A stretch of DNA of 13,683 bases from a virus. Lineage: Duplodnaviria; Heunggongvirae; Uroviricota; Caudoviricetes. The stretch lies in the IMG/VR virus record IMGVR_UViG_2879742664_000002; one strand, given 5' to 3'. This document shows, piece by piece, positions 3,138-13,683 of the stretch; position 1 is the stretch's first letter, and each line of letters opens with the position of its first letter. The notes below the pieces were generated by a model, which saw only the letters and a program-made list of their open reading frames with translations, made no database searches and had not been told where the DNA came from. Both the position numbers and the translations under genes were made by a program.

Positions 3138-3213
3138 GGCCCTTTAGCTCAGTGGTGAGAGCGAGCGACTCATAATCGCCAGGTCGCTGGTTCAAATCCA
3201 GCAAGGGCCACCA
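3138..3213 (+). tRNA. ileZ: tRNA with CAT anticodon, ileX/ileY-like (tRNA-Ile2, lysidine-type; tRNAscan would call it Met)
   Basis: Hand-folded cloverleaf: acceptor ggccctt/aagggcc, D arm gctc-agtggtga-gagc, anticodon stem agcga/tcgcc with loop ctCATaa, T arm gctgg-ttcaaat-ccagc, discriminator A, encoded CCA. Gene symbol follows the prophage tRNA trio of Stx phages as recalled. Confidence 0.85.
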
Positions 3214-3220
3214 TCACATA

Positions 3221-3297
3221 CCGCCATTAGCTCATCAGGAAAGAGCGCCAGCCTTCGAAGCTGGCTGCGCGGGGTTCAAGTCCCCGATGGCGGTCCA
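3221..3297 (+). tRNA. argN: tRNA-Arg, anticodon read as TCG
   Basis: Hand-folded cloverleaf: acceptor ccgccat/atggcgg, D arm gctc-atcaggaaa-gagc, anticodon stem ccagc/gctgg with loop ctTCGaa, T arm cgggg-ttcaagt-ccccg, encoded CCA. Anticodon and symbol assignment are from manual folding and memory, not a tRNA-finder run. Confidence 0.75.
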
Positions 3298-3310
3298 TTA
3301 TCTGCATCAT

Positions 3311-3387
3311 GCGTTGTTAGCTCAGCCGGACAGAGCAATTGCCTTCTAAGCAATCGGTCACTGGTTCGAATCCAGTACAACGCGCCA
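3311..3387 (+). tRNA. argO: tRNA-Arg, anticodon TCT (reads AGA)
   Basis: Hand-folded cloverleaf: acceptor gcgttgt/acaacgc, D arm gctc-agccggaca-gagc, anticodon stem attgc/gcaat with loop ctTCTaa, T arm actgg-ttcgaat-ccagt, discriminator G, encoded CCA. Confidence 0.8.
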
Positions 3388-3401
3388 CACTTATTTTCCC
3401 T

Positions 3402-3427
3402 GGCTCGCTTTTGCGGGCTTTTTTTTT
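3402..3427 (+). terminator. Rho-independent terminator after the tRNA cluster
   Basis: Stem gctcgc (3403-3408) / gcgggc (3413-3418) with one G-U pair, tttt loop, followed by a run of 9 T (3419-3427). Confidence 0.55.
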
Positions 3428-3623
3428 AAATGTCTCACAATTCAGACGGTTGACTGTTGTCTGGTTTGCGGGGAGTTTGTTAAAAGAAACTGGCATGGTG
3501 AATCCCCCTGTGCGGAGGGGCAATCAGCGAGTAGGTATATGGGATAATCGCGGATTCAGGTGCTGGTACTGAATTCACCGGGAGGCACCCGGCACCATGC
3601 AATGGCACATAGCGCCACTCTCC

Positions 3624-3650
3624 AGCCCCTCTCCGGAGGGGCTTTCTTGT
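3624..3650 (+). terminator. GC-rich hairpin with T-rich tail (candidate plus-strand terminator)
   Basis: 8-bp stem agcccctc (3624-3631) / gaggggct (3636-3643), loop tccg, then ttcttgt. Confidence 0.4.
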
Positions 3651-3653
3651 GGG

Positions 3654-3683
3654 CAAAAAAAGCCCGCGCTGGGAGACGCGGGC
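3654..3683 (-). terminator. Candidate minus-strand rho-independent terminator
   Basis: Stem gcccgcg (3662-3668) / cgcgggc (3677-3683) with 8-nt loop, preceded on the plus strand by an A7 run, i.e. hairpin followed by T7 when read on the minus strand. Confidence 0.4.
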
Positions 3684-3876: not shown

Positions 3877-4956
3877 ATGGCTTTTAAACACTATGATGTT
3901 GTCAGGGCGGCGTCGCCGTCAGATCTTGCGGAAAAGCTGACACATAAACTGAAAGAGGGCTGGCAGCCGTTTGGTAGTCCGGTGGCCATAACCCCTTATA
4001 CTCTGATGCAGGCGATTGCAGCAGAAGGTGCAGTAATCAGCGCCACCAGCGACCCGGAGTATTACTTTGTTGTGGTTCTGGCAGGGCAGTCAAACGGCAT
4101 GTCGTATGGTGAAGGCCTTCCGCTGCCGGGGACATATGACCGTCCGGACCCGCGTATTAAGCAACTGGCGCGTCGCAGTACGGTGACACCGGGCGGTGCA
4201 GCATGCAAATATAACGACATCATTCTGGCGGACCATTGTCTGCATGATGTGCAGGACATGAGCCGTCTTAACCATCCGAAAGCGGACCTGTCAAAGGGGC
4301 AGTACGGAACCGTGGGGCAGGGGCTGCATATCGCCAAAAAACTGCTGCCGTTTATACCGGCGAATGCGGGCATTCTGCTGGTTCCGTGCTGTCGTGGTGG
4401 TTCAGCGTTCACCACCGGAGCTGATGGCACATACAGTGACGCGAGTGGTGCCTCGGAGAATTCAACCCGCTGGGGTGTGGACAAGCCGCTGTATAAGGAC
4501 CTTATCGGTCGAACAAAAGCGGCACTGGAGAAGAACCCGAAAAATGTGCTGTTTGCCGTGGTGTGGATGCAGGGGGAATTTGATTTTGGCGGTACGCCGG
4601 CAAATCATGCCGCACAGTTTGGTGCGCTGGTTGATAAATTCCGTGCAGACCTGGCGGATATGGCAGGCCAGTGCGTCGGTGGCTCTGCTGGCGGTGTTCC
4701 CTGGATATGCGGGGACACGACGTATTTCTGGAAGCAGAAGAACGAATCCACGTACCAGACGGTGTACGGCAGCTATAAAAATAAAACGGAAAAGAATATC
4801 CATTTCGTACCGTTCATGACCGATGAGAACGGGGTGAATGTGCCGACGAACAAACCGGAAGAAGACCCGGACATTCGGGGTATCGGTTATTACGGTTCGA
4901 AATGGCGTGACAGCTCAGCCACCTGGACGTCACAGGACAGGGCGAGCCATTTCTAG
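3877..4956 (+). CDS. Prophage NanS-p-like sialate O-acetylesterase (N-terminal DUF1737-like region plus SGNH/SASA esterase domain), probably C-terminally truncated
   Basis: ATG 3877 with GGGAGGA RBS (3866-3872). Translation begins MAFKHYDVVRAASPSDLAEKL... and contains the esterase motif VVVLAGQSNGMSYGEG. ORF ends at TAG 4954-4956, exactly where IS66-like sequence begins; relatives are recalled as roughly 600 aa or more. Confidence 0.7.
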   Translation: MAFKHYDVVRAASPSDLAEKLTHKLKEGWQPFGSPVAITPYTLMQAIAAEGAVISATSDPEYYFVVVLAGQSNGMSYGEGLPLPGTYDRPDPRIKQLARRSTVTPGGAACKYNDIILADHCLHDVQDMSRLNHPKADLSKGQYGTVGQGLHIAKKLLPFIPANAGILLVPCCRGGSAFTTGADGTYSDASGASENSTRWGVDKPLYKDLIGRTKAALEKNPKNVLFAVVWMQGEFDFGGTPANHAAQFGALVDKFRADLADMAGQCVGGSAGGVPWICGDTTYFWKQKNESTYQTVYGSYKNKTEKNIHFVPFMTDENGVNVPTNKPEEDPDIRGIGYYGSKWRDSSATWTSQDRASHF

Positions 4957-5291
4957 ACTGGCCCCCTGAATCTCCAGACAACCAGTATCACTTAAATAAG
5001 TGATAGTCTTAATACTAGTTTTTAGACTAGTCATTGGAGTACAGATGATTGATGTCTTAGGGCCGGAGAAACGCAGACGGCGTACCACACAGGAAAAGAT
5101 CGCAATTGTTCAGCAGAGCTTTGAACCGGGGATGACGGTCTCCCTCGTTGCCCGGCAACATGGTGTAGCAGCCAGCCAGTTATTTCTCTGGCGTAAGCAA
5201 TACCAGGAAGGAAGTCTTACTGCTGTGGCCGCCGGAGAACAGGTTGTTCCTGCCTCTGAACTTGCTGCCGCCATGAAGCAGATTAAAGAAC
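4957..5291 (+). mobile_element. IS66-family left-end fragment (leader plus 5' part of orf1), cut by IS629
   Basis: Contains an orf1 (HTH_Tnp_1-type, ISEc8-like as recalled) preceded by an 88-bp leader with palindromes. Right boundary is the IS629 left terminus at 5292. Left boundary is approximate; no GTAAGCG-type terminus seen at this end. Confidence 0.5.
5045..5291 (+). pseudogene. IS66-family orf1/TnpA (helix-turn-helix accessory protein), 3'-truncated by IS629
   Basis: ATG 5045 with GGAG RBS. Translation [58 protein letters not shown]...MKQIKEL runs into the IS629 terminus after about 82 codons; the tail NRPGNPGD of the ORF is IS629-encoded. Confidence 0.6.
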
Positions 5292-5345
5292 TGAACCGCC
5301 CCGGGAATCCTGGAGACTAAACTCCCTGAGAAAGAGGTAAACAGG

Positions 5346-5672
5346 ATGACTAAAAATACTCGTTTTTCCCCCGAAGTCCGTCAGAGGGCGATTCGTATGG
5401 TTCTGGAAAGTCAGGGCGAATATGACTCACAGTGGGCGGCAATTTGTTCCATTGCCCCAAAGATTGGCTGTATACCGGAGACTCTGCGTGTCTGGGTACG
5501 CCAGCATGAGCGGGATACCGGAGGCGGTGATGGCGGGCTCACCACCGCTGAACGTCAGCGTCTGAAAGAGCTGGAACGTGAAAATCGTGAACTGCGCCGC
5601 AGTAACGATATCCTTCGCCAGGCTTCCGCTTATTTTGCGAAGGCGGAGTTCGACCGCCTCTGGAAAAAGTGA
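5346..5672 (+). CDS. IS629 OrfA (HTH DNA-binding part of the transposase)
   Basis: 108-aa [45 protein letters not shown]... with leucine-zipper-like C-terminus, typical IS3-family OrfA. Confidence 0.9.
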
Positions 5673-6559
5673 TGCCACTGCTGGATAAGCTGCGTAAGCT
5701 GTACGGGGTCGGACCGGTATGCAGTGAACTACATATTGCCCCGTCAACGTATTACCACTGTCAGCAACAGCGACATCATCCTGATAAACGCAGTGCCCGT
5801 GCGCAGCGCGATGACTGGCTGAAGAAAGAGATACTGCGCGTATACGATGGGAATCATCAGGTATACGGTGTGCGTAAAGTCTGGCGTCAGTTGTTACGGG
5901 AAGGTATCAGAGTGGCCAGATGCACTGTGGCACGTCTCATGGCGGTTATGGGACTTGCCGGTGTTCTCCGGGGTAAAAAGGTCCGTACGACCATCAGCCG
6001 GAAAGCCGTTGCCGCAGGCGACCGCGTAAACCGTCAGTTCGTGGCAGAACGACCTGACCAGCTGTGGGTGGCTGATTTTACTTACGTCAGCACATGGCAG
6101 GGCTTCGTCTATGTGGCGTTCATTATTGATGTGTTTGCCGGATACATCGTGGGGTGGCGGGTCTCATCGTCCATGGAAACGACATTCGTGCTGGATGCTC
6201 TGGAGCAGGCGTTATGGGCCCGTCGACCGTCCGGCACGGTCCATCACAGTGATAAAGGTTCTCAGTATGTATCGCTGGCCTACACACAGCGGCTTAAGGA
6301 AGCCGGATTACTGGCATCAACAGGAAGTACAGGCGACTCGTATGACAACGCGATGGCGGAGAGCATCAATGGTCTTTACAAAGCGGAGGTAATACACCGT
6401 AAGAGCTGGAAAAACCGTGCAGAAGTGGAACTGGCCACACTCACGTGGGTGGACTGGTATAATAATCGACGATTGCTGGAAAGGCTGGGCCACATCCCTC
6501 CGGCAGAAGCAGAAAAAGCTTATTATGCTTCCATCGGAAACGATGATCTGGCAGCCTGA
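5669..6559 (+). CDS. IS629 OrfB (DDE catalytic domain; expressed as OrfAB by -1 frameshift)
   Basis: 296-aa ORF overlapping the orfA end in the -1 frame; DDE-type integrase-fold hallmarks ([24 protein letters not shown]). Confidence 0.9.
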
Positions 6560-6602
6560 GTTCACAGATAAAACACTCTCCAGGAAACCCGGGGCGGTTC
6601 AG

Positions 6603-6953
6603 GGTGAGGGTGGTGAAGGCCATCTGAGTTCTTTCTTTGTCCAGACAGATAAAGCCAGTATTAATGTTGCATACCATCATACAGTTAATCAACAAAAAGA
6701 ACTTGGCACGTTTGGCGCATTCGACCATGACTGGCATACGCTTGCATTTAAATTTAAGGGCAGTAACAGCATTAATGTTACTCCGGTGCTTGATGGTGTG
6801 GATGGACAGGCGTTTGACCTGGTGAAATGGGCCAATACTGCTAATGGACTCAACAGGTTTGTCATTACGGATATTACAGGTAGTGCAGAAACCTACCCTG
6901 TACTTATTGATACGGTGGAAGTTAAAGCAAACAAAGCTGGAGCAGCCGCATAA
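6603..6953 (+). pseudogene. Start-less C-terminal ORF fragment (116 codons) resuming at the IS629 right end; possibly the displaced 3' part of the nanS-p-like gene
   Basis: Reading frame is open from the first base after IS629 to TAA 6951-6953 (GEGGEGHLSSFFVQTDKASINVAYHH...VEVKANKAGAAA); no start codon outside the IS. Assignment to nanS-p is inference only. Confidence 0.4.
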
Positions 6954-6958
6954 TTGCT

Positions 6959-6995
6959 AAAAAAAGCCGCCAGCGGCAGGAATGGAAGCTGGCGG
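6959..6995 (-). terminator. Hairpin with flanking A/T run (minus-strand-oriented intrinsic terminator or bidirectional stop)
   Basis: 8-bp stem ccgccagc (6967-6974) / gctggcgg (6988-6995), 13-nt loop, A7 run at 6959-6965 on the plus strand (T7 after the hairpin on the minus strand). Confidence 0.35.
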
Positions 6996-7092
6996 AGGTA
7001 ATCCCAATGGAGAATGTAAAGAAAAGATGCTTTCGTACATTGGTTTTTTAAATGAAAACAATTCTCATTGTCAACCATAACGGTAAGAAATT

Positions 7093-7275
7093 ATGACATT
7101 TATTCATCAGGTGATGCTGTACTTCTGTACGGCGGTCTGTGTGCTGTATCTTCTTTCGGGTGGGTACAGGGCTGTGCGCGATTTCTGGTGCAGGCAGATT
7201 GATAAAAGGGCCGCTGAGAAAATCAGCGCCAGTCAGTCAGCCGGAAGCAAACCCGAAGAACCCGTTACTCCTTAA
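7093..7275 (+). CDS. Hypothetical small protein with hydrophobic N-terminus (60 aa)
   Basis: ATG 7093, weak RBS; translation MTFIHQVMLYFCTAVCVLYLLSGG... then a charged tail. Competes with an overlapping alternative frame (7139..7546); weakly supported. Confidence 0.3.
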   Translation: MTFIHQVMLYFCTAVCVLYLLSGGYRAVRDFWCRQIDKRAAEKISASQSAGSKPEEPVTP

Positions 7276-7300
7276 CAACCCCTTTCAGCGAGAAAATCCC

Positions 7301-7546
7301 ATGTCAGAAATCACATCCCTGGTCACTGCAGAGGCAGTGAAGGAAGTCCTGCGCTCTGAAGAAGTCCGGAGCGCACTGAAACAGAAACTTCGCCAGAATC
7401 TTGAGTCGCGTCTTGATGCAGAAGTGGATGCCATTCTGGATGAGCTGCTGGGCGTAGCAGCGGTTCCTGAGCCGGAAGGTATCGCGGGTGACGGGAGTGC
7501 TTCAGATGGCGGTGAACCTACACCTGACAGCGACATGATGATGTAA
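7301..7546 (+). CDS. Hypothetical acidic protein (81 aa)
   Basis: ATG 7301 after a purine-rich stretch (gagaaaa); helical-looking, strongly acidic C-terminus (...[26 protein letters not shown]). Lies immediately upstream of the holin. Confidence 0.45.
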
Positions 7547-7622
7547 GCATGCGCAAGGGACCATCGGTGTGTGCCGGTGGTCTTTATATTGTTGTGAGCT
7601 TCCGGATTGCGGGAGACGGGGT

Positions 7623-7838
7623 ATGTACCAGATGGAAAAAATCACAACAGGTGTGTCATACACCACGTCAGCGGTGGGAACGGGCTACTGGTTCCTGCAG
7701 TTGCTGGACAGGTTTTCCCCGTCTCAGTGGGCGGCAATAGGCGTGCTGGGGAGTCTGTTGTTTGGGCTGCTGACATATCTGACTAACCTGTATTTCAAAA
7801 TCAGAGAGGACCGTCGTAAGGCGGCGCGGGGAGAGTAA
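7623..7838 (+). CDS. S: Holin, phage 21 S-like (pinholin type)
   Basis: 71-aa [74 protein letters not shown] with two hydrophobic segments and a basic C-terminus. RBS GGGAGACGGGG; two in-frame ATGs (7623, 7632). Confidence 0.8.
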
Positions 7839-8237: not shown

Positions 8238-8771
8238 ATGAACACCAAAATCAAATACGGCCTGTCGGCTGCCGTTCTGGCGCTGATTGCCGCAGGTGCG
8301 CCTGCGCCTGAAATCCTCGACCAGTTTCTGGATGAAAAGGAAGGTAACCACACCACGGCATACCGTGATGGCGCGGGTATCTGGACCATCTGCCGCGGTG
8401 CCATCCTGGTGGATAGTAAACCTGTCGTCCCGGGCATGAAGTTGTCGAAGGAAAAATGCGACCAGGTCAACGCCATTGAGCGTGATAAGGCGCTGGCATG
8501 GGTGGAGCGCAATATTAAAGTGCCGCTGACCGAACCCCAGAAAGCGGGTATCGCGTCATTTTGTCCCTATAACATTGGCCCCGGTAAGTGTTTCCCGTCG
8601 ACGTTTTACAGACGGATTAATGCTGGTGACCGCAGGGGAGCATGCGAAGCGATTCGCTGGTGGATTAAGGACGGTGGCAGAGACTGCCGTATCCGCTCAA
8701 ATAATTGCTACGGTCAGGTATCCCGGCGAGACCAGGAAAGTGCGCTGGCGTGCTGGGACATCGACAGATAA
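8238..8771 (+). CDS. R: SAR endolysin (T4-lysozyme-like GH24 muramidase with N-terminal signal-anchor-release segment)
   Basis: 177-aa ORF; N-terminal Gly/Ala-rich weakly hydrophobic segment (GLSAAVLALIAAGAPAP) followed by the catalytic E...D...T signature (EGNHTTAYRDGAGIWTICRG). Confidence 0.85.
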   Translation: MNTKIKYGLSAAVLALIAAGAPAPEILDQFLDEKEGNHTTAYRDGAGIWTICRGAILVDSKPVVPGMKLSKEKCDQVNAIERDKALAWVERNIKVPLTEPQKAGIASFCPYNIGPGKCFPSTFYRRINAGDRRGACEAIRWWIKDGGRDCRIRSNNCYGQVSRRDQESALACWDIDR

Positions 8772-9123: not shown

Positions 9124-9255
9124 ATGTCAGACAAACTCATAACGCTGGCGAAGATCCTCTGTGTAATTGTCGGCATTTCATTTTCACTAATGCTGGTTGC
9201 TCTTTTTCTTTCCATGGCCTGGATGATGTTGTCTTCGTCGGGGCTGCTGGGGTGA
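9124..9255 (+). CDS. Hypothetical small hydrophobic protein (43 aa), translationally coupled to Rz
   Basis: ATG 9124 with strong GGGAGGA RBS at 6-nt spacing; almost entirely hydrophobic (ITLAKILCVIVGISFSLMLVALFLSMAWMML); stop TGA 9253-9255 overlaps the Rz GTG start (9252-9254). Confidence 0.45.
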   Translation: MSDKLITLAKILCVIVGISFSLMLVALFLSMAWMMLSSSGLLG

Positions 9256-9650
9256 ACATAAACCGAATGCTTTCCGCGTTTACCGTTATTCTGCTGGTGG
9301 TCTGTGGTGCGCTGTGGCTGGCAACAGACCATTACCGTGATAACGCCATCACCTACAAAGCGCAGCGCGATAAAAAAGCCAGAGAGCTGGAGCTGGCAAA
9401 CGCAACCATTACTGACATGCAGCAGCGCCAGCGTGATGTTGCCGCTGGTCGTAAGCGCCTGCGGATCAACGCCACCTGCTCCGGTACCGTGCGTGAAGCC
9501 ACCGGCACCTCCGGAATGGATAATGCAACCGGCCCCCGACTGGCAGACACCGCTGAACGGGATTATTTCACCCTCAGAGAGCGGTTGATGACAATGCAGA
9601 AGCAACTGGAAGGGGCGCAGGAATATATCCGCACTCAGTGTATTAACTAG
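9252..9650 (+). CDS. Rz: Rz inner-membrane spanin (i-spanin)
   Basis: 132-aa ORF (start GTG 9252 or ATG 9267) with N-terminal TM helix then HYRDNAITYKAQRDK...RLADTAERDYFTLRERLMTMQKQLEGAQEYI, closely resembling lambda Rz as recalled. Confidence 0.85.
   Translation: MNINRMLSAFTVILLVVCGALWLATDHYRDNAITYKAQRDKKARELELANATITDMQQRQRDVAAGRKRLRINATCSGTVREATGTSGMDNATGPRLADTAERDYFTLRERLMTMQKQLEGAQEYIRTQCIN
9436..9588 (+). CDS. Rz1: Rz1 outer-membrane lipoprotein spanin (o-spanin), embedded in the +1 frame of Rz
   Basis: ATG 9436 inside Rz; MLPLVVSACGSTPPAPVPCVKPPAPPEWIMQPAPDWQTPLNGIISPSESG has a lipobox (VSAC) and proline-rich body like lambda Rz1. Confidence 0.8.
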   Translation: MLPLVVSACGSTPPAPVPCVKPPAPPEWIMQPAPDWQTPLNGIISPSESG

Positions 9651-9673
9651 TATTTTTGTTATCCGGAGAATGC

Positions 9674-9898
9674 ATGAAGAAATTACTGGTAACCGTAAAG
9701 CCTTTTCAGGGAACAATTCCGTTCCGTATTTTGCAGCGTGGTCGTGTTCTTGTTGAAGGTTCGTTCAGTGGTAAATGTACGCAATTACACTCCCGGACCT
9801 TTCAGGTGAATGCCACGAATGAAGAGCTAACCGTTGAGTGTACGATGAATGCCGCTAAATGCCGCATGGTATCCGCTGCATTACAGCCAGTGTGTTGA
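9674..9898 (+). CDS. Hypothetical small protein (74 aa, four Cys)
   Basis: ATG 9674 with GGAGA RBS at 5-nt spacing, 24 bp after the Rz stop; no signal peptide or TM segment; no recognisable family. Confidence 0.45.
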   Translation: MKKLLVTVKPFQGTIPFRILQRGRVLVEGSFSGKCTQLHSRTFQVNATNEELTVECTMNAAKCRMVSAALQPVC

Positions 9899-10179: not shown

Positions 10180-10222
10180 TTGATGACCGACAGGGTGGCA
10201 TTGTTAGAATAAGACTTATTCT
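10180..10222 (+). promoter_or_regulatory. Candidate promoter with overlapping perfect palindromic operator upstream of the TonB-C lipoprotein gene
   Basis: TTGATG (10180-10185) and TAGAAT (10205-10210) separated by 19 bp; 17-bp perfect palindrome AGAATAAG-A-CTTATTCT at 10206-10222 overlaps the -10-like hexamer, 14 bp before ATG 10237. Confidence 0.3.
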
Positions 10223-10236
10223 TATCTGTGCCGGGA

Positions 10237-10569
10237 ATGAAAATGAAAAGAAACCTTCCGTTAATTATTTTGTTGTCTTCTCTGGTTATGGGCTGTACGC
10301 AACATAAAACAGATATGCCCCGACAGTTGGTTAAGGCATTACCACAATATCCGGCCTATGCAGCGGCAAATTATATAAAGGGACGGGTTGATGTGAAGTT
10401 TGATATTGGTGCTGATGGTACTGTCACCCGAATTGAGTTTATCCGTTCAGAGCCGCACCATTTGTTTGATGAGCAGGTTGTAAAGGCGATGGCAAAATGG
10501 CGATTTGAGAAGGACAGGCCGTGTAAAGGCGTGAAGAAAACGTTTATCTTTAGTCCTTCTGCACCCTGA
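10237..10569 (+). CDS. Lipoprotein with TonB C-terminal domain (TonB_C-like), prophage accessory gene
   Basis: Signal peptide with lipobox (MKMKRNLPLIILLSSLVMGC, Thr at +2). Mature region PQYPAYAAANYIKGRVDVKFDIGADGTVTRIEFIRSEPHHLFDEQVVKAMAKWRFE aligns by eye with E. coli TonB C-terminal domain ([34 protein letters not shown]...FEREVKNAMRRWRYE). Start could be ATG 10237 or 10243. Confidence 0.75.
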   Translation: MKMKRNLPLIILLSSLVMGCTQHKTDMPRQLVKALPQYPAYAAANYIKGRVDVKFDIGADGTVTRIEFIRSEPHHLFDEQVVKAMAKWRFEKDRPCKGVKKTFIFSPSAP

Positions 10570-10700: not shown

Positions 10701-10901
10701 TCATTTCTCGTTATTTTTCATGCTGGCCGGGCGCAGATGCGTTGCATCTGTTGCCAGCCTTCTCCTGCAGGCTTCAATAACCCACGCTGAAAAGTTTCCT
10801 GAACCTTTCAGATCAAGAGCGATGTTAATTTGTTCAATCATCTGGTTTGGAAATCGGATGTTGCGGGTTGTTGTTCTGCGGGTTCTGTTCTTTGATGACA
10901 T
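10701..10901 (-). CDS. Small ribbon-helix-helix (CopG/Arc-like) DNA-binding protein
   Basis: 66-aa minus-strand ORF, ATG at 10899-10901 with GGGGA upstream; basic N-terminal strand then two helices (TRNIRFPNQMIEQINIALDLKGSGNFSAWVIEACRRRL). Convergent with the lipoprotein gene. Confidence 0.6.
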   Translation of the reverse strand: MSSKNRTRRTTTRNIRFPNQMIEQINIALDLKGSGNFSAWVIEACRRRLATDATHLRPASMKNNEK

Positions 10902-10986: not shown

Positions 10987-12415
10987 GTAAGCGTCAACGG
11001 AGCACCGTATTGACGCTTATTTATTGGTGAGTGCTACGTTCCATGGCAGGAGTTCGTCAACACGGTTGGAAGGCCATTCCGGCAGTACGCTCAGGATATA
11101 GCGCAGATACGCTTCCGGATCGATACCGTTCAGTCGGCAGGTGCCGATCAGCCCGTACAGTAGCGCACCACGCTCTCCACCGTGATCGCTGCCGAAGAAC
11201 ATAAAGTTTTTCTTTCCGAGACAGACTGCACGAAGCGCTCTTTCCGCGGCATTATTATCCGCCTCAGCCAGACCATCATCACTGAAGTTGCACAACGCAA
11301 CCCAGTGCTTCCTGATATACCGGAACGCATCTCTCAGACGGCATTTTTTCGATAACGTGTGTTCTTTCTCCTGCATCAGCTTATACAGGGAAGTCAGTAG
11401 CGGTTTACTCTGCATTTGCCTGACCGCCAGGCGTTCAGACACCGGCAACCCGCGTATTTCGTGCTCGATGGCGTACAGCTCACCGATTAGTTTCAGGGCT
11501 TCTTCCGCTGTCGCGCTTTTGGTACTGATATATACATCGTGGACTTTGCGCCGCGCATGAGCCCAGCATCCTGCTTCCGTCAACGCGCCGCCTTCTCGTT
11601 CGGCACTGAACAGCCGATCGTAACCATTAAACGCATCTGCCTGCAGGATACCCCGGAAGGGACTAAGGTGCTGCTCCGGATGTTTACCCTGATGGTCCGG
11701 TGAGTAGGCGAACCAGACCGCCGGAGGCTCTGGCGAACCGGCATTCCTGTCATCCCGGACATACGTCCAGATATATCCTGTTTTCGCCTTCTTCCTGCCC
11801 GGTGCCAGCACTTTTACTGGTGTGTCATCAGTGTGAACTTTGCGGCTGTTCATTACATAACGGTACAGAGCATCATTCAGCGGCGTCATTAACTGGCAGC
11901 ACGCGTCAACCCAGTTGGAGAGTAATGCACGGCTCAGTTCGACACCCTGACGGGCAAAAATTTCACTCTGACGATACAGTGGCAGGTGTTCGCAGTATTT
12001 TCCCGTTAACACGCGGGCAAGTAACCCCGGGCCCGCGATACCACGCTCTATCGGACGGGATGGTGCCGGTGCTTCAACGATGCAGTCACATTTTGTACAG
12101 GCTTTTTTTACCCGTTCTGTGCGGATCACTTTCAGAGCGCTGCTCACCAGTTCCAGTTGTTCTGCGCTGACTTCCCCCAGATAATCCAGCTCACCGCCAC
12201 ACTCCGGGCAACAGCTTTCTTCTGGCTCCAGGCGATTTATTTCGCGGGGCAGATGCTCCGGTAACGGGCGACGATGACGAGACTGTCGCAACTGGCGGGG
12301 AACCTGCGGATCGTCTTCCCGCCCACTGTAACGATCACTGTCCTGTTCGCGTTGTTTCAGCAGGGCCTCAGCCTGTTCAACTTCACGACGCAGTTTTTCA
12401 GAACGGGTACCGAAC
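10987..12415 (-). mobile_element. IS66-family element, right-end portion (terminal repeat plus tnpC), truncated by IS629
   Basis: GTAAGCG terminal motif at 10987-10993 (typical IS66 terminus as recalled); tnpC-type ORF on the minus strand; abuts the IS629 left terminus at 12416. Confidence 0.7.
11017..12415 (-). pseudogene. IS66-family transposase TnpC (DDE_Tnp_IS66 type), 5'-truncated by IS629
   Basis: Frame open from the IS629 junction with no ATG (FGTRSEKLRREVEQAEALLKQ... then CCPECGGEL zinc-ribbon motif, LPLYRQSEIFARQGVELSRALL, DDTPVKV, C-terminal LLPWNV); stop at 11017-11019. About the first 50 codons are missing. Confidence 0.8.
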
Positions 12416-12469
12416 TGAACCGCCCCGGGAATCCTGGAGACTAAACTCCCTGAGAAAGAGGTAAACAGG

Positions 12470-12796
12470 ATGACTAAAAATACTCGTTTTTCCCCCGAAG
12501 TCCGTCAGAGGGCGATTCGTATGGTTCTGGAAAGTCAGGGCGAATATGACTCACAGTGGGCGGCAATTTGTTCCATTGCCCCAAAGATTGGCTGTACACC
12601 GGAGACTCTGCGTGTCTGGGTACGCCAGCATGAGCGGGATACCGGAGGCGGTGATGGCGGGCTCACCACCGCTGAACGTCAGCGTCTGAAAGAGCTGGAA
12701 CGTGAAAATCGTGAACTGCGCCGCAGTAACGATATCCTTCGCCAGGCTTCCGCTTATTTTGCGAAGGCGGAGTTCGACCGCCTCTGGAAAAAGTGA
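12470..12796 (+). CDS. IS629 OrfA (copy 2)
   Basis: 108-aa ORF identical to copy 1 except Ile to Thr at residue 43 ([12 protein letters not shown]). Confidence 0.9.
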
Positions 12797-13683
12797 TGCC
12801 ACTGCTGGATAAGCTGCGTAAGCTGTACGGGGTCGGACCGGTATGCAGTGAACTACATATTGCCCCGTCAACGTATTACCACTGTCAGCAACAGCGACAT
12901 CATCCTGATAAACGCAGTGCCCGTGCGCAGCGCGATGACTGGCTGAAGAAAGAGATACTGCGCGTATACGATGGGAATCATCAGGTATACGGTGTGCGTA
13001 AAGTCTGGCGTCAGTTGTTACGGGAAGGTATCAGAGTGGCCAGATGCACTGTGGCACGTCTCATGGCGGTTATGGGACTTGCCGGTGTTCTCCGGGGTAA
13101 AAAGGTCCGTACGACCATCAGCCGGAAAGCCGTTGCCGCAGGCGACCGCGTAAACCGTCAGTTCGTGGCAGAACGACCTGACCAGCTGTGGGTGGCTGAT
13201 TTTACTTACGTCAGCACATGGCAGGGCTTCGTCTATGTGGCGTTCATTATTGATGTGTTTGCCGGATACATCGTGGGGTGGCGGGTCTCATCGTCCATGG
13301 AAACGACATTCGTGCTGGATGCTCTGGAGCAGGCGTTATGGGCCCGTCGACCGTCCGGCACGGTCCATCACAGTGATAAAGGTTCTCAGTATGTATCGCT
13401 GGCCTACACACAGCGGCTTAAGGAAGCCGGATTACTGGCATCAACAGGAAGTACAGGCGACTCGTATGACAACGCGATGGCGGAGAGCATCAATGGTCTT
13501 TACAAAGCGGAGGTAATACACCGTAAGAGCTGGAAAAACCGTGCAGAAGTGGAACTGGCCACGCTCACGTGGGTGGACTGGTATAATAATCGACGATTGC
13601 TGGAAAGGCTGGGCCACATCCCTCCGGCAGAAGCAGAAAAAGCTTATTATGCTTCCATCGGAAACGATGATCTGGCAGCCTGA
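12793..13683 (+). CDS. IS629 OrfB (copy 2; expressed as OrfAB by frameshift)
   Basis: 296-aa ORF matching copy 1 at the protein level; stop codon is the last three bases of the window. Confidence 0.9.

Follow-up and report, generated by a model that had tools for sequence, protein, structure and literature searches.

The stretch of DNA analyzed here (the window; all 13,683 nucleotides (nt) of IMG/VR virus record IMGVR_UViG_2879742664_000002, from a virus of the Caudoviricetes) carries a prophage gene whose product is almost certainly an outer-membrane-type lipoprotein bearing the C-terminal domain of the energy transducer TonB. The gene is an intact open reading frame (ORF) on the + strand with two in-frame ATGs, so that it runs from 10237 or 10243 to 10569. 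The second ATG is the more likely start, because a Shine-Dalgarno-like GGGA, read from the sequence (10233 to 10236, +), lies 6 nt 5' of it and because RefSeq annotates the equivalent start for the gene of phage JLK-2012. The predicted product of this coding sequence (10243 to 10569, +) is a TonB_C lipoprotein of 108 amino acids, to which the upstream ATG at 10237 would add Met-Lys. We propose, with a probability of roughly 0.4, that the protein is a dominant-negative TonB mimic that is held at the outer membrane and competes with TonB for the TonB boxes of transporters.

The protein has a stand-alone TonB C-terminal domain. It matched Pfam PF03544 (TonB_C) at E=1.3e-14 (54.8 bits; cut-off 24.6) and TIGR01352 at 54.5 bits (cut-off 27.1). 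The best matches among solved structures were the C-terminal domains of E. coli and Salmonella TonB (E about 1e-16), and the TonB structures 1u07, 2gsk, and 2grx were matched at E about 1e-15 to 1e-16. Amino acids 26-103 (10318 to 10551, +) aligned without gaps to residues 153-230 of E. coli TonB, with 31 of 78 positions identical (40%); the TonB numbering used for this alignment agrees with the structure matches and with PMC3005593. The NCBIfam models of full-length TonB (PRK10819 equivalogs) were matched in their C-terminal part only and scored 49-74 bits, far below their cut-offs of 265-448. The membrane anchor and the proline-rich spacer of TonB are both absent; the N-terminus is instead a cleavable lipoprotein signal, and seven residues lie between Cys18 and the domain. 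A first-pass annotation of this DNA, made from the letters alone, had described a lipoprotein consisting essentially of a TonB C-terminal domain, without the anchor and spacer, and had suggested a profile search and a structure prediction as checks. The profile search bore out the description, as did the predicted structure.

The predicted fold is that of the TonB C-terminal domain. An AlphaFold2 (AF2) model made from a shallow alignment had a pLDDT (predicted local distance difference test score) of 62 and was superseded by a model from a deeper alignment with 24 diverse relatives, which had a pLDDT of 85.7, with 79 residues at 90 or above. This model is a compact alpha/beta fold with a three-stranded sheet that can be superposed on solved TonB C-terminal domains. 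Foldseek placed it on 1u07 with a root-mean-square deviation (rmsd) of 1.0 Å over 83 columns, and it also fit TonB bound to BtuB (2gsk chain B; rmsd 1.1 Å, template modeling (TM) score 0.91) and TonB bound to FhuA (2grx chain C; rmsd 1.0 Å, TM score 0.92). Among the 50 matches listed in the search of PDB folds, all 12 with E <= 0.001 were C-terminal domains of TonB or TonB homologues. A search of the BFVD library of viral structures gave no meaningful match.

Residues that matter for TonB function are retained in the phage protein. Cysteine scanning of the TonB C-terminus identified Y163, F180, G186, F202, W213, Y215, and F230 as functionally important, and the Ton box of BtuB touches TonB residues 158-171 and 225-232 (PMC3005593). 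The equivalents of the seven residues are Y36, F53, G59, F75, W86, F88, and F103; six are identical and the remaining one, F88, is a conservative Tyr-to-Phe change at the position of Y215. These seven positions are also the best conserved in the family of stand-alone domains (mean identity of 0.85, versus 0.42 for the rest of the domain), and the YP motif (Y36-P37) and G59 (G186 in TonB) are invariant or nearly so. The alignment covers both of the TonB segments touched by the BtuB Ton box, up to TonB residue 230. The motif P-Q-Y-P (amino acids 34-37; 10342 to 10353, +) corresponds to P161-Q162-Y163-P164, inside the contacting segment 158-171, and the last beta-strand (amino acids 94-103, CKGVKKTFIF; 10522 to 10551, +) supplies the equivalent of residues 225-230 within the Ton-box-pairing segment 225-232. 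In the AF2 model the protein ends five residues past this strand, with SPSAP. Since nothing else follows the last strand, its edge, which in TonB is the side that pairs with the Ton box, is not expected to be covered by a further strand.

The N-terminus has the features of a lipoprotein that is sorted to the outer membrane. The predicted signal peptide (amino acids 1-17, MKRNLPLIILLSSLVMG; 10243 to 10293, +) has basic residues at positions 2 and 3 (K2 and R3) and a hydrophobic maximum at amino acids 4-20, and it runs into the lipobox L-V-M-G-C (10282 to 10296, +) in the motif IILLSSLVMGC, with Cys18 as the predicted lipidation site followed by Thr19-Gln20. Basic residues, hydrophobic core, lipobox, and cysteine all conform to the prokaryotic lipoprotein rule (PROSITE PS51257-type). 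A short tether (amino acids 19-25, TQHKTDM; 10297 to 10317, +) connects the lipid anchor to the domain, giving the overall layout MKRNLPLIILLSSLVMGC, then TQHKTDM, then PRQLVKALPQYPAY...TFIFSPSAP, and the mature part has no hydrophobic stretch (Kyte-Doolittle maximum of 0.53). The residue at +2 is Thr, as the first-pass annotation had noted, and not Asp; because the Lol-avoidance signal is absent, sorting to the outer membrane is predicted. The lipobox is kept in both E. coli alleles (see below) and in 25 relatives, and the +2 residue is T, S, A, or V, never Asp. From the cysteine to the PxYP motif, the spacing is 15 residues in this protein and ranges from 14-23 in the 25 relatives; in TonB, roughly 128 residues separate the membrane helix from the same motif. 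Given this short spacing and the absence of Asp at +2 among the relatives, the conserved design would be a TonB head kept close against the outer membrane on its periplasmic side.

Compared with the C-terminal domain of E. coli TonB (residues about 153-233; 1u07, 2gsk chain B, 2grx chain C), the phage protein shares the Pfam domain, 40% ungapped identity, a fold within about 1 Å rmsd, the YP motif, and, counting the change of Y215 to Phe as conservative, all seven important residues. It differs in being phage-encoded, in lacking the anchor, the spacer, the coupling to ExbB/ExbD, and the last 6-9 residues of TonB, and in its predicted lipid anchoring to the opposite membrane.

We suggest the following mechanism. 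The protein would be exported, lipidated, and sorted by the Lol pathway to the outer membrane, as its signal sequence indicates, and the length of the tether would place the domain at the periplasmic rim of that membrane. There, the exposed last beta-strand and the PxYP segment would pair by beta-augmentation with the TonB boxes of ligand-loaded transporters; FhuA, FepA, CirA, BtuB, and other TonB-dependent transporters are candidate partners, and homology together with the retained contact segments points to such binding. Genuine TonB would be kept away by competition and the transporter plug could not be pulled, as a protein that visibly lacks a membrane anchor, and with it the spacer and the link to ExbB/ExbD, has no means of energy transduction. 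TonB-dependent transporters are the entry route for siderophores, vitamin B12, many phages, group B colicins, microcins, and siderophore-antibiotic conjugates. Cells that make the protein should tolerate T1, phi80, group B colicins, and microcins, and the expected price is reduced uptake of siderophores and B12, which would be immaterial during lytic growth. What the analysis establishes is the domain, its predicted fold, the lipoprotein signal, the short tether, purifying selection, and the conserved place in phage genomes (see below); localization, binding partner, phenotype, and timing are inferred.

The first-pass annotation had also suggested that the domain could occupy TonB boxes and exclude phages; this reading is plausible and has a functional precedent. 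In 2004, Koedding and co-workers reportedly found that C-terminal TonB fragments down to 86 residues bind to FhuA, inhibit the uptake of ferrichrome, and confer protection from phi80. With periplasmic TonB fragments (residues 33-239, 103-239, or 122-239) the TonB system is inhibited and ferrichrome is no longer transported (bioRxiv 10.1101/2020.01.05.895219). Like the phage protein, these engineered fragments put a TonB C-terminal domain in the periplasm without an energy source; unlike it, they are artificial, soluble, and overexpressed, whereas the phage protein is natural, 60% diverged, and predicted to be lipid-anchored. We consider it about an even bet that interference with the TonB pathway, whether at the transporters or at TonB itself, is what the protein does. 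More tentatively, lambdoid phages (phage 21, Stx1a phages, and the iss-bearing prophage of extraintestinal pathogenic E. coli (ExPEC)) might in this way shut every TonB-dependent gate at once, and the chromosomal homologues described below might be endogenous negative regulators.

The gene is common in lambdoid phages and in E. coli. Copies with 99-100% identity are present in Escherichia phage JLK-2012, Lys8385Vzw, and four Stx1a-converting phages, and the protein is 100% identical to those of the Stx1a phages and Lys8385Vzw. An allele with 72% identity is found in the classical lambdoid phage 21, in ev017, in Perceval, and in several PhiR phages, and a 40%-identical homologue is found in a Klebsiella prophage. 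In the Stx1a phages, JLK-2012, phage 21, and the Klebsiella phage, the gene is flanked by the lysis genes on one side and by the HNH/terminase genes or cos on the other. The nearest upstream marker was Rz, orf9656, Rha, or KilA-N in 77 of 80 IMG/VR contigs, and the downstream neighbor was an opposite-strand YlcI/YnfO gene in 75 of the 80. Among 5426 complete E. coli genomes, the window-type allele matched 417 and the phage 21-type allele 1225; the two sets may overlap. Nearly all of these matches are chromosomal with the reading frame intact, and about one in four sequenced E. coli genomes, or more, would carry the gene. The ratio of nonsynonymous to synonymous substitution rates (dN/dS) between the two phage alleles is 0.13 (0.10 within the domain) at a dS of 1.37. 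The gene is under purifying selection.

Relatives of the protein are also encoded by bacterial chromosomes. An exhaustive profile search and a genome scan found lipoproteins with the same architecture, of about 105-135 amino acids, in Raoultella, Klebsiella, Serratia, Erwinia, Pantoea, Rahnella, and Sodalis. Most non-phage relatives are orphan genes in variable housekeeping surroundings (near lacI/lacZ, dsbB, or araA). No transporter, exbBD, or iron-uptake genes were found near the chromosomal homologues, and their context gives no functional clue; the Serratia montpellierensis homologue alone lies behind a phage lysozyme gene. In one sub-group (Erwinia rhapontici and relatives), the N-terminus is an ordinary signal peptide (...LTASAQ) with no lipobox cysteine, and these proteins would be soluble periplasmic TonB heads. 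A gene for a DUF1440 (YagU-like) membrane protein adjoins the Raoultella chromosomal homologue (6738-7301 of the examined stretch), and one is also found about 3 kb upstream of the Klebsiella phage homologue (1277-1903 of the examined stretch). This co-occurrence could be coincidence or may be a trace of joint capture.

Several observations weigh against a phage-borne TonB decoy. The orphan chromosomal relatives in Raoultella, Klebsiella, Serratia, Erwinia, and Pantoea are 30-50% identical to the phage protein, and their housekeeping context may point to a physiological role beyond that in phages. Within the domain, the equivalents of Q160 and Q162 are variable in the family. A global or constitutive blockade of TonB would be costly to TonB-dependent hosts: ExPEC strains need TonB-dependent iron uptake for virulence, and the 1225 genomes that match the phage 21-type allele include avian pathogenic E. 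coli (APEC) O1. The cost of a permanent blockade argues for late, low, or conditional expression. Nor was a convincing conserved promoter or Fur box found (see below). PADLOC gave no match at its default threshold of 0.001; its best hit (E=0.022, 11.8 bits) was to an oligonucleotide-cyclase model. Finally, searches of open-access full text and bioRxiv, which would miss an older paper in a subscription journal, found no functional study of the protein and no mention of the decoy idea.

The best of the alternatives, which we consider unlikely, is that the partner of the domain lies outside the TonB pathway. The protein could then be an envelope component that links the outer membrane to peptidoglycan or some other ligand in the periplasm, with a general envelope or fitness role and with phages as mere carriers. 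The orphan homologues in many Enterobacterales, in contexts linked neither to phages nor to iron, fit this explanation, as do the relatives with an ordinary signal peptide and no lipobox. Kaserer and co-workers reportedly found in 2008 that the TonB C-terminal domain binds peptidoglycan. TonB-like C-terminal domains can also change their ligand. That of FusB, a TonB paralogue of Pectobacterium that binds ferredoxin (7zc8, 9hi3), is a close structural match to the phage protein and illustrates that the fold can take specialized partners; FusB itself, unlike the phage protein, is a full-length energy transducer anchored in the inner membrane. Two findings speak against this alternative. The phage protein is closest to enteric TonB proper and keeps enteric-specific aromatic residues that are thought to track transporter recognition, and no conserved adjoining gene for another partner was found.

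A decoy could also produce the same phenotype through a different target, although we regard this as improbable. The tethered domain would pair with the C-terminal domain of host TonB, or trap TonB, and so titrate the few hundred TonB molecules of the cell, which would take far fewer copies than capping all of the far more numerous transporters. TonB-ExbD complexes are disturbed by a periplasmic TonB domain, and TonB C-termini associate in vivo via G186, F202, W213, Y215, and F230 (PMC3005593), all of which are conserved here except for the Tyr-to-Phe change at Y215. Yet the phage protein lacks the residues beyond the last strand that mediate strand exchange in crystal dimers of TonB, and PMC3005593 argues that these dimers do not exist in vivo. 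In addition, on a tether of about seven residues the domain is unlikely to reach ExbD in the inner membrane.

A role in lysis, as a spanin or an accessory protein, is very improbable. This possibility is raised by PHROG 1267, a family labeled 'Rz-like spanin' (lysis) that matches the protein over its full length (E=5.7e-43), and by the position of a lipoprotein gene just after the lysis genes. Against it, an Rz-type i-spanin is already present in the window (9252 to 9650, +; PF03245), in phage 21, and in JLK-2012. Phage 21 has a separate annotated o-spanin and the window Rz gene has an embedded Rz1-like lipoprotein ORF at about 9436-9588, so the lysis cassette already has its own spanins. The gene is about 600 nt beyond Rz in the window, and orf9656, KilA-N, Rha, or bor intervenes between the two. 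The protein lacks the C-terminal transmembrane segment needed for a u-spanin and is not proline-rich like Rz1, its entire mature part being a globular TonB_C domain, and most chromosomal homologues have no lysis genes nearby. We rejected the label, since the properties of the protein are those of neither an o-spanin nor a u-spanin. PHROG 1267 corresponds to the TonB_C lipoproteins, and its spanin label looks like a propagated misannotation and that will mislead phage annotation pipelines.

We also rejected a decaying, non-functional fragment of a captured tonB, as suggested by the database names 'partial tonB-like' and 'TonB fragment' and by the heavy damage from insertion sequences (IS) to the window prophage, as scarcely credible: a dN/dS of 0.13 at a dS of 1.37 indicates purifying selection, a lipoprotein signal was gained and conserved, almost all of the matching E. 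coli genomes (417 and 1225) have an undisrupted frame, and the family extends across Enterobacterales.

Known phage lipoproteins that act on TonB-dependent transporters resemble the TonB_C lipoprotein in proposed function only. Cor (of phi80, N15, and HK022) and Llp (of T5; PMC9586334) are, as is predicted for the protein described here, small phage lipoproteins of the inner leaflet of the outer membrane, proposed to act on a TonB-dependent transporter from the periplasmic side. They inactivate FhuA for superinfection exclusion, are specific to it, and guard the receptor of their own phage, whereas the predicted target of the TonB_C lipoprotein is the TonB box shared by many transporters. The Pfam, PHROGs, and PDB fold searches gave no sequence or fold relation to Cor or Llp, matching TonB_C families and, among the listed folds with E <= 0.001, C-terminal domains of TonB or its homologues; no direct alignment to Cor or Llp was made. 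The parallel to Cor and Llp drawn in the first-pass annotation holds as a likeness of proposed function and not as membership in a family.

Exclusion of the carrier phage from its own receptor, as for Cor, does not appear to be the purpose. The C-terminus of the phage 21 J protein resembles that of lambda J, to which it is 57% identical, and is shared with Stx phages and JLK-2012, and no phi80, N15, or HK022 record was present among 60 sampled rows of the search with this C-terminus. The lambda-J-type tail tips give no indication that the carrier phages use a TonB-dependent receptor, and we rejected self-exclusion on this weak evidence. Any exclusion would be aimed at other phages or toxins.

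The gene occupies the same niche as bor/iss, between the spanin genes and cos/terminase, and it adjoins bor/iss in phage 21 and in the APEC O1 prophage that is integrated at icd. Bor and Iss are also small outer-membrane lipoproteins; they are unrelated to the TonB_C lipoprotein in sequence. Their genes run opposite to the late operon, as is usual for genes that are expressed in lysogens, whereas the TonB_C gene is co-oriented with it. The proposal in the first-pass annotation that the gene is a lysogenic-conversion moron in a bor-like position after the lysis cassette is supported as to position; the co-orientation of the gene with the late operon, the absence of a conserved promoter of its own, and the cost to the host weaken the rest.

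The gene shares its strand with the holin, endolysin, Rz, and terminase genes. By analogy with lambda, in which Q antiterminates late transcription, it should be transcribed late in lytic growth. Based on this co-orientation, the protein is probably made at least during lytic growth; expression in lysogens is possible.

We rejected a dedicated promoter or operator for the gene, since the candidate promoter is at chance level and the candidate operator is not conserved. The candidate promoter is a weak sigma-70-like site (ATGACC-16-TAGAAT with a TG extension, 9/12; 10183 to 10210, +). Promoter-like sites in the region are no more common than expected by chance, and in phage 21 only the -10-like part of the site is kept. 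A perfect 17-bp palindrome (AGAATAAGACTTATTCT; 10206 to 10222) overlaps the -10-like hexamer upstream of the gene; the right half is missing from the phage 21 allele, making an operator role doubtful. No promoter-like site on the + strand precedes the gene in phage 21, and in the Klebsiella phage it is preceded only by a different weak site (9/12) that is no better than chance. Inspection by eye for a Fur box upstream of the gene gave best matches at 10-12 of 19 positions, which we find unconvincing. There is also a strong antisense promoter-like site inside the coding sequence (TTCACA-16-TATAAT, 11/12; 10370-10397, -), for which the phage 21 allele has a 10/12 match plus TG (5128-5155 of the examined stretch, -). 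The site overlaps the conserved A-N-Y-I-K codons and may be a mere by-product of coding.

The homology of the protein to TonB is something that annotators noticed long ago: the database names in use include "TonB family protein" and, in phage 21, "TonB C-terminal domain protein". The announcement of the phage 21 genome does not discuss the gene. What is new is a known domain in a new and conserved architecture, with a plausible new mechanism of exclusion. If the decoy mechanism is correct, the protein would be a natural, phage-borne inhibitor of the whole TonB pathway, and mimicry of the energizer, rather than the plugging of one receptor, would be a new principle of exclusion. It would protect broadly against TonB-dependent phages, group B colicins, and microcins, would change how phage and colicin sensitivity and iron acquisition are read in lysogens of enterohemorrhagic E. 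coli (EHEC) and ExPEC, would add a candidate factor to the virulence-linked iss region, and would offer an evolved template for the design of TonB inhibitors. Should the mechanism prove wrong, phage 21, a textbook phage, would still encode an envelope protein that is conserved, very common, and apparently unstudied.

In the window, the gene lies downstream of the lysis genes. These are a P21-type holin gene (7569 to 7838, +; PF04971), an endolysin (phage lysozyme) gene (8238 to 8771, +; PF00959), and the Rz gene described above. The window Rz has 132 amino acids, compared with 155 in JLK-2012, and next to lambda Rz it appears to have an internal in-frame deletion; the embedded Rz1-like ORF retains its lipobox. 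An ORF for 80 amino acids (9656-9898; MKKLLVTVKPFQG...) had no Pfam or PADLOC match and is the immediate upstream neighbor of the gene in 30 of the 80 viral contigs. The downstream neighbor in the window is a YlcI/YnfO gene (DUF3950; 10701 to 10901, -), the product of which resembles, by eye, a ribbon-helix-helix DNA-binding protein.

IS elements have left the window prophage heavily degraded. An IS1-like element lies beside a split gene for a DNA methyltransferase (1367-2064). Two direct copies of an IS3-family element (5288-6560 and 12412-13683), each with an ALIL frameshift pseudoknot, abut fragments of IS66-family elements (5000-5288 and 11017-12291), and the two fragments are in opposite orientation. 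A gene for a SASA esterase (nanS-p-like) is split into 3877-4956 and about 6600-6953. This arrangement was found in no complete E. coli genome, so the source may be Shigella-like. The window has no toxin genes. Three tRNA genes (Met-CAT, Arg-TCG, and Arg-TCT) and the small RNA STnc100 are upstream of the esterase gene (3138-3654), a layout that resembles the late region of Stx phages.

Phage 21 itself carries a sitBCD (presumably sitABCD) locus for an iron/manganese ABC importer (21967-24502 of the record; 13968-16001 of the examined stretch). This TonB-independent uptake of metals might offset the iron cost of a putative TonB blocker.

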